In this document: one piece after another, positions 10,280-22,427 of the stretch | Layout of the letters: every line of letters begins with the position of its first letter | Numbering within the stretch: the first letter of the stretch is position 1 | Assembly: GCA_965203055.1 (NCBI GenBank) | Contig: OZ241863.1 | Location: 2,368,001 to 2,432,000 of the forward strand | Length of the DNA stretch: 64,000 bases | Reading direction: 5' to 3' | Source: Spirochaetia bacterium | Lineage (GTDB): Bacteria > Spirochaetota > Spirochaetia > SZUA-6 > Bin103 | Program-made: the position numbers and the translations under genes | The notes under the pieces: model-generated | What the model was told of the DNA's origin: nothing | What the model saw: only the letters and a program-made list of their open reading frames with translations | Databases searched by the model: none

Positions 10280-11092
10280 TCAAGCGATACCGCGTTTGAG
10301 GTTGGTCAACTTGGCGCGCAGGCGGATGATCGCCTTGGTGTGAAGCTGCGACACGCGCGACTCCGTGACTTCCAGCACCTCGCCGATCTCGCGCAGCGTC
10401 AGCTCTTCGTAGTAGTACAGCACCAGAACCCGCTGTTCCTTTTCCGGCAGCTCCCGGAGCGCCTCCAGCATGACCCGCTTGATCTCGTTCTTCTCGACGA
10501 TTACGTCCGGATTCATACTGGCCGGAGATTCCACGCTCTCCACGATGGAGATGCGGTCGTTGTCATCGCTGCTGTGCCACAGGTCATTCAACGACATCAC
10601 CGTGGTGCTGCTGATCTTCAGCAGCAACTGCTGGAACTCCTTCAGCGACAGGTTCATCTCCCGGGCCAGCTCGGCGTCGGTAGCCGCGCGCCCCAGGGCC
10701 GCCTCGAGGCGGCGTACGGCATCCTCCACTTCGCGCGCCTTCTGACGAATCGAGCGCGGCACCCAATCGTTGCTGCGCAGCTCGTCGAAGATGGCGCCGC
10801 GGATGCGGGTCACCGCGTAGGTCTTGAACTTGACGTGCTTGCTGGGATCGAACTTCTCGATGGCGTCGAACAAGCCGAACACGCCATAGCCCACCAAGTC
10901 ATCGAACTCCACGCTGCCCGGCATTCCCACCGCCACCTTGCCGGCGACGTACTTGACCAACGGCGCGTACTGGCGCACGAAGTAGTCTCGTATGGTTATA
11001 TCTTTATGAGCACGGTAGTTATCCCACAATTCCCGTTCCTTTTCCTGAGTCAGCGCGACGACGGTGGTCCGCTCCCGGGTATCAGTTGCCAT
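10280..11092 (-). CDS. fliA: RNA polymerase sigma28 factor FliA/WhiG
   Basis: [53 protein letters not shown]. Confidence 0.97.
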
Positions 11093-11231
11093 GATGCCCT
11101 TCTAACGGCCGCCGAGCGGGCGCCGCGCAGCGCCGGTGAGGCGCCCGAGACGCCGCCGGCCGGCGGCGGACTGACCGAAACTTGTGACAGCGAACATGGT
11201 GCACCACTTCGTGTCCAACCCGATGGTGAAT

Positions 11232-11260
11232 ACCGTAGGCAGATTTCTGCGCAAGGTCAA
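11232..11260 (-). promoter_or_regulatory. Putative sigma70 promoter for fliA
   Basis: TTGACC(11260-11255)-17-TACGGT(11237-11232); spacer holds GCAGA-N2-TCTGC palindrome. Confidence 0.5.
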
Positions 11261-11298
11261 CATAGTCCCCCTTCTTGAACAGCGTAAAACGTCCTGCA

Positions 11299-12552
11299 TC
11301 ATGAACCTTCCGCCGCATGCCCTGCGGGTACTGCGGCGCGATGTTCCCGCGCCGCGGCAGCGGCGCCGAATTCCTGCTCCAGCAACGTGCGATCGAGACG
11401 AAACCCATCCAGACTCAGGAGCAAACGCACGATCGATGCCGGCGCAATATCCTGCGGCACTACCTGTCCGTCGCAGCAGTACGACAGCGGCTTGCGCGCG
11501 CCCGCAAGAGCCGACAGGACATTGCCGATGGTCGCGGTCTCGTCCAGCTTGGTCACGATCACGCCGTCGTAGGCGAACGGCTCGAACTGGCGCATGATCT
11601 CCTCCAGGTCGGTGTGCTTGGTGGTCGCGCTCAGGACCAGTTGCGTGGTACCGCGGCGGCCCACGGCGTCGAGCACCGAGCGGATCTCCGCCAGGTGGGA
11701 GTAGTCAGCGGGGCTCCTGCCAACCGTATCGATGAAGATCAGACCCGCATCCTGGCCCAACGCAATGGTCTTCTTGAGCTCCTCGGCGGTCTCCGCCGAG
11801 GTTACCGGGATGCGCATGATCTCGCCGTAGGTCTCGATCTGCTGGCGCGCGCCAATGCGGTAGTTGTCGATGGTCACGATGCGCACCGGACAGTCGGCCT
11901 CGGCCGGGCTGCCGATGGCGTGCAGCGCCGCCAGCTTGGCGACGGTGGTCGTCTTCCCTACTCCGGTGGGGCCGACCACGGTGCAGATGCGCGGTCCCGC
12001 CGCGGCGCCGTCGGCCTCCGCCAGCGGCGCCGCCAGCCGCAGCTCGCGGCCGATCCGGCGCGCCACGAAGTGATGCACCGCCGGCGGGTCTTCGAGCCGC
12101 GCCAAGGGAAACTCGGCCCGCACCTGGTCGAGCAGCCGGAGCCGCGCAGGAGCGGCAAAGTCGTTGTGCAGCAGCAGCGTGTCGAGCGCGGCCAACTGCG
12201 GATGCTCCTCCTGCCGCACGGCGACCTGCGCGCGTTCCGGCAACGAGGCGTCCAACCGCGACCGCATCGCCGCCACCTCATCCGCCAGCCGCTGCAGGTT
12301 GGCGCCGGACGGGGCCTGATGCAGGATCTTGCGCTTCTCCTGCGCCAGGTCGGGCGCCTGCGGCGCCGCGCGGTCCGGCGCCGCAGGCTCCACGAAGCCG
12401 GTTATCTCCACCCCCTGTCGGGTGAACATACCCAGCATGCCGCCCATCCGTACCGGGCGGTGAGAGTGAATGCGGGCCTCCGGTCCATACAACCGCTTCA
12501 TCGTTGCCAGCGCCTCGCGGGGGGTGGACCCCTGGATCGTGAAGTACTCCAT
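11299..12552 (-). CDS. flhF: SRP-family GTPase FlhF
   Basis: MEYFTIQGST N-terminus; [36 protein letters not shown]. Confidence 0.95.
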   Translation of the reverse strand: MEYFTIQGSTPREALATMKRLYGPEARIHSHRPVRMGGMLGMFTRQGVEITGFVEPAAPDRAAPQAPDLAQEKRKILHQAPSGANLQRLADEVAAMRSRLDASLPERAQVAVRQEEHPQLAALDTLLLHNDFAAPARLRLLDQVRAEFPLARLEDPPAVHHFVARRIGRELRLAAPLAEADGAAAGPRICTVVGPTGVGKTTTVAKLAALHAIGSPAEADCPVRIVTIDNYRIGARQQIETYGEIMRIPVTSAETAEELKKTIALGQDAGLIFIDTVGRSPADYSHLAEIRSVLDAVGRRGTTQLVLSATTKHTDLEEIMRQFEPFAYDGVIVTKLDETATIGNVLSALAGARKPLSYCCDGQVVPQDIAPASIVRLLLSLDGFRLDRTLLEQEFGAAAAAREHRAAVPAGHAAEGS

Positions 12553-12559
12553 TGGCGGC

Positions 12560-19134: not shown

Positions 19135-19249
19135 GCGCTCCCTCCCCAGTAGCGGCCGGCGCGCTGCCCGGTTCCAAGGGCGGGGAACCTGCGGCGCCGG
19201 CCTCACCCCGGCGCCCGCCGCGTGGGGCAGCGTGGCCGGGTCGGGCTCC

Positions 19250-19278
19250 ACGTTACGGCAATGTGGAAAAAGGTGCAA
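19250..19278 (-). promoter_or_regulatory. Putative internal sigma70 promoter upstream of fliM
   Basis: TTGCAC(19278-19273)-17-TAACGT(19255-19250) in an AT-richer patch. Confidence 0.45.
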
Positions 19279-19310
19279 GCCGCCGCCGCGGGCGCCGCGG
19301 GCGCCGGCCA

Positions 19311-20882
19311 TTACTTCTCGGCCAGCCACGTGCGCACCGCCCGCGCCGCGTCCGCGGGCCGCTCGCGGGCCAGGCTGGCCGCGTTCCGCTGCATCTCCCT
19401 GGCCCGCAGGTTGTCGGCCTCACGTGCCCGGCCGTTGCGCGCGGCCGCCCGCAACCGCGCCGGGCGCAGGCCGGAGTGGTGCGCCGCGCGCGACCGCCGG
19501 CGCCGGCCCAGCCACCAGGAGAGGGCGGCCACCAGCAGCAGCGCCGCCGCGCCCGCGGCGGCCGGCGGCAGCAGGCGCAGCAACTCGGCCTCGCGCCGCA
19601 GCAGCGCGTCCTCCTGCCGGAACTGGCGCGTGCGGTCGAACTGCAGGTGCTCGACGGTAACCGAGTCGCCGCGCCGCTCGTCCCAGCCGACGGCGCCCTG
19701 GATGAGCAGCGCGGCCTTGCGCAGCTCCTCGGCCGAGACCGGCGTGTATTCCCGCCGCACGCTGCCATCCGCATTCACCACCACCCGGCCGTCCGGCTCG
19801 AAGACCGTCCGCCACACGCCGTCGAGCGCCACGCTCGCGGTGATCCGGTTGATCGCCCACGGGCTCTTCTCGGTGATCGTGCGGCGGTTGACCACTTCGT
19901 TGCGGGCCGCCGAGCCGCGCTCGCGGGCGGCCGGATCGGGCGCGGCTCCGGCCTCGGTAGGCTCCGGCGCCGCGCCGTAGAACGACTCCTGTTCGGTCTG
20001 GTCGGACACGGTGAACTCGGCGGACAGATCGAGATCGATGTCGAGGCGCACGATCTGCACGCGGTCGAGCGTAAAGATGTTGCCCAGCGCGGTCAGGATT
20101 TCGCGCTTGTAGCGCTGCTCCAGGTGATGCTTGGTATCGAGCTGGCGTTCCACCAACGTCATGCGGCCATGCCCGGCAGGGTCCGAGAAGTCGTTCACCT
20201 GCATTCCGCGCGGGTCGAGGATGACGATGTTCTCGGCGCGCAGGCCGGCCACGGCGAACTGCACCAGGCGCTGAACGCCGGCCACCTTCTTGCGATTCTC
20301 CAGGATGTCGGAGCCGGGCCGCGGCGTGATGATGATCGAGGCCGTGGTCGGGTTCTGATCTTCCGCGAACAGCTCGGTTTCGGGCACTACCAGGGTGACG
20401 CGCGCGGCCACGACGTCGTCCAGCGCGGCGATGTGCTGTTCCAGGTTGCGCGTCAGGGCGCGCTGCAGGTTGACGTTGCGCTCGAAGTCGGTAATCGAGA
20501 ACCGGTCCACGTCGAACACGGCGAACGGGTCGGTGCGCGGGGGAATCAGGTCTTCGCGGATCAGGATTGCGCGCAACCGCCGCGCACTGTCCTGATCAGC
20601 GACCAGGATGCGGTTGTCGGGGCCTATTTCGTAGTCCGCGCCTTCCTGGTCGAGGCGGGCGGCGATGCTCAGCAGCGCCTGCTGATCGGCGATCGGCGCC
20701 CCGATCAGGGCCACCGCATGCCGCTCGGCGGGATTCTGGCCCGCGCCGCGGGCGGCGCCCAACAGCGCCAGCACCACGAGCCCGGCGGCGGCGGCCACCA
20801 CCAGCGCTGCCTTCTGAAGCTGAGTCCAACGACCCCACCGGGCGGACGCCTGCTCCCACAGGCGCGCCGAGCGCTCGTTCAT
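19311..20882 (-). CDS. fliF: MS-ring protein FliF (523 aa)
   Basis: ITDFERNVNLQRA, PTTASIIITPRPGSD, GAVGWDERRGDSVTVEHLQFDR, tail ARERPADAARAVRTWL; SD GGGAGG. Confidence 0.93.
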   Translation of the reverse strand: MNERSARLWEQASARWGRWTQLQKAALVVAAAAGLVVLALLGAARGAGQNPAERHAVALIGAPIADQQALLSIAARLDQEGADYEIGPDNRILVADQDSARRLRAILIREDLIPPRTDPFAVFDVDRFSITDFERNVNLQRALTRNLEQHIAALDDVVAARVTLVVPETELFAEDQNPTTASIIITPRPGSDILENRKKVAGVQRLVQFAVAGLRAENIVILDPRGMQVNDFSDPAGHGRMTLVERQLDTKHHLEQRYKREILTALGNIFTLDRVQIVRLDIDLDLSAEFTVSDQTEQESFYGAAPEPTEAGAAPDPAARERGSAARNEVVNRRTITEKSPWAINRITASVALDGVWRTVFEPDGRVVVNADGSVRREYTPVSAEELRKAALLIQGAVGWDERRGDSVTVEHLQFDRTRQFRQEDALLRREAELLRLLPPAAAGAAALLLVAALSWWLGRRRRSRAAHHSGLRPARLRAAARNGRAREADNLRAREMQRNAASLARERPADAARAVRTWLAEK

Positions 20883-21009
20883 GTTCCCCTCCCACCGGTG
20901 CGAAGGCGCACCGGATCCGGAGGGCGGCCGGCTCACGTTGCGCCTGAGTCACGCGCTATCCGTTAACGCACGGATCGACCGTTCCTGTCAACCGCCCGGA
21001 GGTCCGGTT

Positions 21010-22427
<1,418 letters not shown>

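Follow-up and report, generated by a model that had tools for sequence, protein, structure and literature searches.

A pruned flagellar gene cluster with a reduced ring-and-gate set in a GC-rich, uncultured spirochaete clade

Gene content and setting of the cluster

We found a strongly shortened flagellar superoperon in a 64,000-nucleotide stretch of DNA from an uncultured Spirochaetia bacterium (assembly GCA_965203055.1, contig OZ241863.1, positions 2,368,001 to 2,432,000; hereafter the window). Eleven flagellar genes lie in a row on the minus strand (10280–20882), directly after the hslVU genes, in the order fliF-fliM-fliN-fliO-fliP-fliQ-fliR-flhB-flhA-flhF-fliA, and every frame is open. High G+C gives rise to numerous spurious open reading frames (ORFs), and genes were chosen by the GC content of third codon positions (GC3) together with family searches. 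The evidence for the calls, namely Pfam and NCBIfam matches and the placement of start codons, confirms the content, order and openness that an earlier, sequence-only reading of the window had proposed. Pfam E-values of the cluster genes run from 2.8e-10 (FliO) to 2.2e-147 (FlhA), far beyond chance.

The series, all on the minus strand, begins with fliF, which encodes an intact MS-ring protein of 523 residues (19311–20882; Pfam YscJ_FliF 3.4e-36, YscJ_FliF_C 4.6e-15; NCBIfam 248.8 bits, above the 129.75 cut-off). It continues with fliM, which retains its middle and C-terminal domains only (18121–19134; FliM 1.6e-36, FliMN_C 6.2e-20), and with fliN, coding for 135 residues (17717–18124; FliMN_C 8e-24). 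These are followed by fliO (16976–17665; FliO 2.8e-10), the export-gate core gene fliP (16156–16992; FliP 1.4e-71, 240.8 bits), fliQ (15878–16159; Bac_export_3 3e-27), fliR (15036–15881; Bac_export_1 3.2e-52), flhB (13936–15039; Bac_export_2 6.5e-75) and a flhA of 459 codons (12560–13939; FHIPEP 2.2e-147, profile positions 2–407 of 657). The row ends with flhF, encoding a GTPase of the signal recognition particle type (11299–12552; SRP54 7.1e-33), and fliA, encoding a sigma factor of the sigma-28 family (10280–11092; sigma-70 r2/r3/r4). The NCBIfam models assign the export gate to the flagellar rather than the injectisome lineage, with FlhA scoring 489 bits vs 372 for SctV, FlhB 228 vs 161 for SctU and FliF 249 vs 43 for SctJ.

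The genes are tightly packed. The gap between hslU and fliF, by start codon assignment, is 127 bp, exactly the distance given in the sequence-only reading, and that between flhF and fliA, estimated there at about 200 bp, is 206 bp and holds no flhG. The space between fliF and fliM had been put at under 200 bp; this stands if fliM starts at GTG 19134, which leaves 176 bp and has GGGAGGGAG upstream, but the frame is open up to 19329, and a start at 19311 or 19329 would make fliM overlap fliF. The overlapping stop and start codons noticed earlier are four-base overlaps at six junctions (hslV/hslU, fliM/fliN, fliP/fliQ, fliQ/fliR, fliR/flhB and flhB/flhA) and one of 17 bases at fliO/fliP. Among the 52 ORFs scanned across the window, 11 yielded flagellar families, and family searches found in none of the 52 a flgB/C, fliE, fliG/H/I/J, fliK, flgD/E, motA/B, fliL, flhG, flagellin or che family.

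Related loci were collected by a FliP scan of one genome per species, which returned 80 loci. The two nearest, both from metagenome-assembled genomes (MAGs), are L001 (Spirochaetaceae) and L002 (Spirochaetia), with GC contents of 67–70% and FliP identities to the window of 85–86% in the best tblastn segment and 80–81% across a longer local alignment. The next are L003 and L004, from Spirochaetaceae and Spirochaetales MAGs (63%), and L005–L008, from four Treponema MAGs (54–61%). L002 reads ftsZ-xerC-dprA-xerD-hslV-hslU-fliF-fliM-fliO-fliP-fliQ-fliR-flhB-flhA-flhF-fliA-orfX-M23-M23, and L001, whose contig reaches only to fliO, is arranged in the same way from there on. An apparent flhB-flhA fusion in these two loci was rejected: flhB is read in a different frame, and high GC accounts for the long open stretch.

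The canonical locus L004 reads fliJ, an unnamed gene, fliK, flgD, flgE, motA, motB, fliL, fliM, fliY, fliO, fliP, fliQ, fliR, flhB, flhA, flhF, flhG, a second unnamed gene, fliA and fapA. It thus carries fliJ (upstream of fliK), fliK, flgD, flgE, motA, motB, fliL, fliY, flhG and fapA where the pruned loci have none, in line with the earlier claim that the usual spirochaete genes are missing in place. In the window, hslU and hslV are followed further upstream by xerD, dprA, xerC, ftsZ, ftsA, ftsQ, ftsW, a Mur ligase gene, mraW and mraZ. The available part of the Borrelia burgdorferi account describes a flagellar superoperon that spans 26.3 kb and counts 31 genes, with upstream neighbours ftsZ, ftsA and ftsW (PMC10802407). 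Because gene order and fts neighbourhood match both the canonical loci and that superoperon, and the pruned order recurs in L001 and L002, the cluster is the ancestral spirochaete superoperon with blocks removed in place, and not a second copy.

The lineage is unusual among spirochaetes in GC content too: the organism is at about 71% G+C, with 62–79% in 2-kb steps of the window, and the highest value among 172 surveyed spirochaete species is 60.9%, as far as the accessible text of that survey goes (PMC12236494). The genomes are large, with clade contigs of 5–8 Mb and those bearing FlhA of the pruned type reaching 7.8 Mb.

Losses within the retained proteins

The pruning extends into the gate proteins themselves. 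In FlhB, the N-P-T-H autocleavage site is present in 4/4 canonical loci (ADVVITNPTH) and lost in 3/3 pruned loci, where the region reads ADVVIADGRR in the window (D-G-R-R at the site), ADVVCADAAR in L002 (D-A-A-R) and ADVVIAAAAR in L001 (A-A-A-R). The equivalents of A286/P287 in the Salmonella pocket are retained in 7/7 loci. Where available, the description of Salmonella FlhB makes the changeover to late substrates dependent on cleavage between N269 and P270 and names the A286/P287 pocket as the docking site of early ones (PMC13344023). Across the window and the 150 best FlhB representatives, N-P stands at the site in 141/151, and the window and the three representatives closest to it are among the 10 that lack it. 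Five others (P0330, P0363, P0398, P0418 and P0425) also lack N-P and have N-termini unlike the spirochaete type, so lineages beyond the spirochaete clade may, judging from these sequences, have non-switching gates. In L001 and L002, the N-terminal part of FlhB has degenerated.

FlhA of the window retains the membrane domain, the linker and part of the first cytoplasmic subdomain (SD1); SD2 and SD4 are gone altogether and SD3 for the most part, with subdomain borders set by alignment landmarks and general knowledge of the structure. Alignment shows a segment of about 48 residues, SD2, to be missing from FlhA of the window, L001 and L002 alike, and a further stretch of about 570 nt of flhA, just before flhF, is missing in the window relative to L001/L002. 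The NCBIfam FlhA score of the window's protein, 489 bits, falls below the 772 cut-off; its best solved relative is a flagellar chain (12dv_B). Among the best 120 FlhA clusters, SD2 is absent from 70 and present in 49, one 327-residue fragment having been set aside. A tree of 87 rows (membrane domain and first part of SD1; quick IQ-TREE, LG+G4, SH-like approximate likelihood ratio test (SH-aLRT) only) places the proteins without SD2 in a single clade (SH-aLRT 99) whose nearest neighbours are canonical (P0070, P0071 and P0112). Within it, the window-type truncation (446–486 residues; 25 clusters plus the window) again forms a single clade (SH-aLRT 100), a second form of ~561 residues (18 clusters) has at least two origins by well-supported branches, and P0024 represents a separate truncation.

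Six rows of the window type, the window included, have membrane domains that are 89% identical and SD1 remnants that are 83% identical. Since this truncation recurs as one clade with both parts conserved, the short FlhA is, on the sequence evidence, a form that is stable and conserved rather than the product of faulty assembly. The position of Salmonella FlhA Asp-208 is Asn in spirochaetes generally and Ser in the window, from which we draw no inference.

FliM and FliN have lost corresponding parts. The FliM N-terminal sequence LSQDEIDQLL, found in 4/4 canonical loci, is absent by alignment from the window and L002, and in a survey that omits 19 more distant matches the CheY-binding motif LSQxEIDxLL occurs in 0/34 pruned-type, 0/2 intermediate and 23/23 canonical clusters. 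FliN, at 135 residues, corresponds to the C-terminal part of FliY (positions 271–374 of 376 in the NCBIfam FliY model), which has 403 residues in L004. FliM and FliN are fused through a deletion in L002, and four further clusters have FliM-FliN fusions with a different FliN-type end. These losses in FlhA, FlhB, FliM and FliN, like the gene orfX described below, go beyond the sequence-only reading.

The losses of genes and of domains match each other. Absence of fliK goes with loss of the FlhB switch, and absence of late substrates and chaperones with that of FlhA SD2; che genes are not in view, nor are the CheY site and the FliY phosphatase part; flhG and flgV are both missing. The claim that the reduction touches chemotaxis, switching and chaperone docking, made earlier from gene content, thus holds at the level of domains, since the corresponding parts are lost within FliM/FliN, FlhB and FlhA.

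Conserved parts and rates of change

The channel proteins have kept their canonical form, with Pfam scores for FliP/FliQ/FliR of 240.8/94.8/177.9 bits in the window and 247.6/93.1/180.8 in the canonical L004, all above the gathering thresholds. The best solved relative of FliF is likewise a flagellar chain (12dr_A, E 4.3e-93), which aligns through the C-terminus: the closing stretch of 20-odd residues in the window's FliF, LARERPADAARAVRTWL, pairs with LAREKPEDVAKLIRTWL of 12dr_A. This C-terminal segment binds the N-terminal domain of FliG. Its pattern fits 51/51 pruned-type clusters; among canonical clusters the strict pattern is found in 59/69, and the remaining ten deviate solely in having Ile in its first position. 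In FliM, the GGxG motif is kept in 36/36 clusters. A complex prediction for FliM with the cytoplasmic tail of FliF, run without controls, scored 0.00, which decides nothing either way.

FlhF matches Pfam SRP54 with 114 bits (cut-off 22.7), and its GTPase motifs, including TKLDET, are readable in the translation; its best NCBIfam matches are FlhF models, yet they lie below their cut-offs (162 vs 174 and 342 vs 585 bits). FliA belongs to the FliA/WhiG sigma-28 family by TIGR02479 (FliA_WhiG; 293 bits, above 189.6) and by Pfam regions r2, r3 and r4. Its best NCBIfam match is a 'WhiG' model (PRK06288; 412 bits vs a cut-off of 343), a name that alone proves nothing. The FliA proteins are 81–82% identical between the window and L001/L002 and 81–90% identical among the three pruned loci.

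A small conserved gene, orfX, lies 3′ of fliA in all three pruned loci (9772–10269, minus strand, in the window; 17153–17587 in L002; 7957–8406 in L001). The product, 150–165 residues in length (165 in the window), has a membrane helix at its N-terminus, a long helix and a conserved end resembling a helix-turn-helix (…RLRRLGFSNA.IADRL..S.GEVELIVNLA). No tblastn match at E 1e-5 was found in canonical loci L003–L008, and the family searches returned only sub-threshold matches to DUF6115, DUF2802 and SpiroCoCo_C. The structure model has low confidence (predicted local distance difference test, pLDDT 63.9) and is too poor for a fold search. The orfX product may be a sigma-28-linked regulator; that orfX is part of the module is uncertain. 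Next come two genes for LysM-M23 peptidases (7400–8515 and 8445–9737, minus strand), an arrangement kept in L001 and L002.

Rates of change were estimated between the window and L001/L002; values for L001 vs L002, which rested on stop-to-stop frames, are left out. Silent sites are saturated: the proportion of synonymous differences (pS) is 0.38–0.61 at GC3 near 0.9, the maximum likelihood (ML) estimates of the synonymous rate dS exceed 1.6 in 19/20 genes and are themselves saturated and unreliable, and three intergenic spacers have no significant match at the orthologous places. The ratios of nonsynonymous to synonymous rates (dN/dS) by the NG86 method are therefore upper bounds, at 0.10–0.12 for fliA, 0.22 for fliP, 0.27–0.36 for fliQ, 0.28–0.33 for flhA, 0.33–0.35 for flhF, 0.34–0.39 for fliR and 0.41 for fliF, next to 0.10–0.35 for eight neighbouring control genes. 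They are higher for fliN (0.45), fliO (0.55–0.64), fliM (0.61) and flhB (0.60–0.69). The dN/dS check that the sequence-only reading had proposed for the retained genes thus gives a divided answer, with 0.10–0.41 for the core from fliA to fliF and 0.45–0.69 for fliN, fliO, fliM and flhB. An ML value for ftsZ (dS 0.20, omega 0.86) is at odds with NG86 and looks like an optimiser artefact.

By ML, the nonsynonymous rate of fliA (dN 0.100) is the lowest in the cluster, with only hslV and hslU lower; FliP/Q/R and the FlhA membrane domain, at 0.13–0.21, are slower than FliF, FlhF, FliM and FliN, at 0.24–0.56. A pace like that of the neighbouring housekeeping genes is seen in FliP/Q/R, the FlhA membrane domain, FliF, FlhF and FliA; FliM and FlhB, by dN also FliN and FliO, are faster. 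FliQ, FliR, the FlhA membrane domain, FlhF and FliA also hold their usual identity rank when pruned pairs are compared with canonical ones. That the genes remain open and recognisable despite saturated silent sites argues for selection.

The surroundings of the cluster hold several further features. The housekeeping genes hslV (22428–22970) and hslU (21010–22431) on the minus strand form its upstream border, with Pfam AAA_2/AAA matches and 83% identity to L002. Tyrosine recombinase genes, xerD-like (22967–23977) and xerC-like (25102–26043; both minus strand), flank dprA between ftsZ and hslV and are kept in L002. At its C-terminal end, the FliO of L002 (8872–9846) repeats DRAPLQR eight times in tandem, which that of the window or of L001 does not. 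An island of low GC (about 50800–52800; 62–64% vs about 71%) holds two ORFs (51015–51779 and 51785–52564, minus strand) without a Pfam or PADLOC match and adjoins a YhgA-like Transposase_31 gene with six EGRQ repeats (47728–48828, plus strand); the island was probably acquired horizontally. The sole match to a relaxed sigma-28 consensus lies at 52043 inside the second of these ORFs and was rejected. At 46078–47811 (minus strand) lies a gene for a 577-residue protein, possibly a surface protein, which consists of ~33-residue repeats of the type GGSGYTSxPTVTF and matches no Pfam family. A tRNA-Ile (GAT; 39358–39431, minus strand) is the only Rfam or ARAGORN match in the 64 kb. A scan of 7300–24100 for sigma-70 promoters gave none and one for terminator-like sites gave 4 vs 6.4 expected, a result that is uninformative.

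A proposed ring-and-gate module and its known counterparts

We posit, on sequence evidence that in our judgement gives this an even chance of being right, that the cluster is a selectively maintained, reduced ring-and-gate module of the superoperon in a GC-rich, uncultured spirochaete clade. We read it as a long-maintained and still-shrinking flagellar core, and neither as a simple rearrangement nor as plain decay. Against mere rearrangement speak the coherent losses, the deletions in place and the clade-wide conservation, and against plain decay the saturated silent sites; part of the module is nonetheless still being lost, as the repeated trimming and the relaxation of FliM and FlhB indicate. 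The module probably does something other than build a normal flagellum.

In such a module, FliP/Q/R (assisted by FliO), FlhB and the FlhA membrane domain would form a type III export gate within the FliF ring, positioned by FlhF and encoded together with sigma-28. Given that the cluster has no FliH/I/J, the gate would take its energy from proton-motive force alone, and because FlhB cannot cleave itself and keeps its substrate pocket, it would be fixed in the mode for early substrates. Chaperone docking would no longer be used, with FlhA SD2 or the entire tail gone, nor would chemotactic control, with the FliM N-terminus and the FliY phosphatase part gone, nor the generation of torque. Exported cargo would end in the periplasm, as the cluster has no rod genes. 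A more specific version of this reading, which we offer as a tentative possibility, is a minimal type III export machine consisting of the FliF ring and FliP/Q/R-FlhB-FlhA(membrane domain), working without ATPase, rod, FlhA ring or substrate switch and co-opted for new periplasmic cargo or another membrane structure. If true, this would be an independent and ongoing transition from flagellum to secretion system in free-living, GC-rich spirochaetes.

Several observations weigh against a maintained module of this kind. In canonical pairs, FliP identities of 69–74% go with 76–78% for FliM and 48–58% for FlhB; the pruned pair of window and L002 has 80% for FliP, 51% for FlhB and only 41% for FliM, which is thus relaxed, as is FlhB by its NG86 dN/dS (0.60–0.69). 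Tails of FlhA have been lost at least three separate times (once in the window type and at least twice in the ~561-residue form), in addition to P0024, and the recurrent fusion of FliM with FliN looks like ongoing erosion. The FlhA cytoplasmic ring of the model organism has a direct role in recognising substrates, according to the accessible portions of two reports (PMC5916509, PMC10965912), and a gate without this ring may not export at all. Two strict consensus patterns for sigma-28 promoters have no match in the 64-kb window. Finally, the conservation of the FliG-binding end of FliF (51/51) and of GGxG in FliM (36/36) points to an unseen FliG. Spirochaetes often carry two fliG genes, and the partner of FliF appears to be still under selection and is most likely a fliG encoded elsewhere; further flagellar genes may also lie outside the window. 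The proposal in the sequence-only reading of selection for a new function instead of decay is accordingly supported in part, in that selection is evident for the constrained core genes and not for FliM, FliN and FlhB, which are relaxed, nor for the FlhA tails and the FliM-FliN pair, which have been trimmed repeatedly.

The last of these observations leads to a different explanation, in which genes for rod, hook, filament, stator, ATPase and FliG, missing here, lie scattered through the rest of a genome of several megabases and a periplasmic flagellum, perhaps simplified, is still made. Besides the FliF helix, a near match to that in the best solved relative, and the FliM motif, the intact FlhF and the dN of FliA, lowest of the cluster genes, would fit it, and spirochaete flagellar genes normally occur in several clusters, as stated in the available text of PMC3372971. 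We nevertheless regard it as quite unlikely: the superoperon has retained its position, with the missing blocks gone from their usual sites, SD2 of FlhA is lost clade-wide and SD3–SD4 in the window too, the N-terminal parts of FliM and FliY are gone, and FlhB cannot undergo the autocleavage that Salmonella needs for the switch to late substrates (PMC13344023, in the part available). The best-120 lists hold no canonical FliF or FlhA on contigs that match the pruned-type ones in size, a weak test in which pruned-type FlhA, FliM and FliF clusters share contig sizes (e.g., 7,095,899 and 615,933 bp), L002's contig is unmatched and absence cannot be proven. Two FlhA clusters, P0036 and P0059 (contigs of 7,785,191 and 7,006,115 bp), lack a counterpart of equal contig size among the FliF and FliM clusters, and either more genes have been lost there or the contig data are incomplete.

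The trimming of FlhA tails, the recurrent FliM-FliN fusions, the relaxation of FliM, FlhB and FliO and the degenerate FlhB N-terminus of L001 and L002 could be signs of a functionless, slowly decaying relic whose genes have not yet been destroyed. This we consider the least probable account: frames are open and FliP/Q/R reach Pfam scores of canonical strength across lineages with saturated silent sites and unalignable spacers, the pruned type comprises 70 FlhA, 51 FliF and 34 FliM clusters, the membrane domain of truncated FlhA is still 83–100% identical within its own clade, and FliA is 81–90% identical among the three loci. A purely structural or regulatory role, which strikes us as improbable though less so than scattered genes, would have FlhF, the FliF ring (with the unseen FliG) and FliM/N serve as a landmark of the cell pole or of division, with sigma-28 driving a rewired regulon, for which the FliA-family factor WhiG of non-motile Streptomyces is a parallel. 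FlhF and FliA are indeed constrained like housekeeping genes, the cluster has stayed next to the division genes, at its ancestral site, and the best NCBIfam match of FliA bears the WhiG name, with the reservation made above. A landmark would not need the channel, however, and it is FliP/Q/R and the FlhA membrane domain that change more slowly than FliF, FlhF, FliM and FliN (only FliA being slower still), with FliM and FliN being the very parts that are lost.

If the reading as a maintained ring-and-gate module is right, the clade offers a natural deletion series that would show which parts of the export apparatus selection keeps once motility is gone, namely the FliP/Q/R channel, the FlhA membrane domain, the FliF ring, FlhF and sigma-28, and which it lets go, namely the FlhA cytoplasmic ring, the FlhB switch and the sensory and scaffold parts of FliM/FliN. 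This bears on how an export gate may work without the FlhA ring and the ATPase, and on the origin of secretion systems from flagella, and it supplies concrete genomes for asking both questions. A literature search in a collection without most subscription journals turned up no account of a cluster reduced in this way in Spirochaetota.

Among known systems, the parallels drawn in the sequence-only reading to Buchnera, Chlamydia and the Bacillus 'CORE' are analogies. Buchnera and Chlamydiae keep partial flagellar sets without motility, the former rod, hook, rings and ATPase, the latter isolated orphan FliF/FlhA/FliI genes beside an injectisome; both are host-bound and have reduced genomes, in contrast to the clade described here with its contigs of 5–8 Mb. 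All six genes of the Bacillus subtilis CORE (FliO/P/Q/R, FlhB and FlhA), a proposed nanotube platform, are kept in our cluster; the nanotube claim is disputed. B. subtilis differs in being a flagellated Gram-positive, and the cluster here also keeps FliF, FliM/N, FlhF and FliA and has a truncated FlhA; nothing links the clade to nanotubes. The CORE report, in its available part, finds flgB-fliF and fliI dispensable (PMC6456723).

The closest functional precedent is Lysobacter enzymogenes OH11, a free-living, non-flagellated bacterium that keeps flhA, flhB and fliP/Q/R. As far as the accessible text of two papers on it goes (PMC7688988, PMC7277350), its remaining export genes are reported to be active in secretion and in the control of twitching; unlike the clade here, it retains fliI together with genes for rod, hook, L/P-ring and hook cap, flagellin being the main thing it lacks, and those texts report no loss of FlhA or FlhB domains, which is a feature of the window.

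Within the phylum, the cluster shares with the flgB superoperon of Borrelia and other spirochaetes its place after ftsW/ftsA/ftsZ and the order of the remaining genes (L003–L007 and, where its text is available, PMC10802407). It differs from the 31 genes in 26.3 kb given in that same source in having 11 genes in 10.7 kb, without rod, hook, ATPase, stator, FliG, FliL, FlhG or FlgV genes, and in its uncleavable FlhB, truncated FlhA and shortened FliM and FliY. Sphaerochaeta and other non-spiral spirochaetes are of the same phylum and have likewise given up the canonical periplasmic flagellum; they have lost everything, whereas the clade here keeps a defined core. Spirochaetes have been thought to possess either full periplasmic flagella or, in a few non-spiral genera, no motility genes at all, and the clade would represent a third, stable state.

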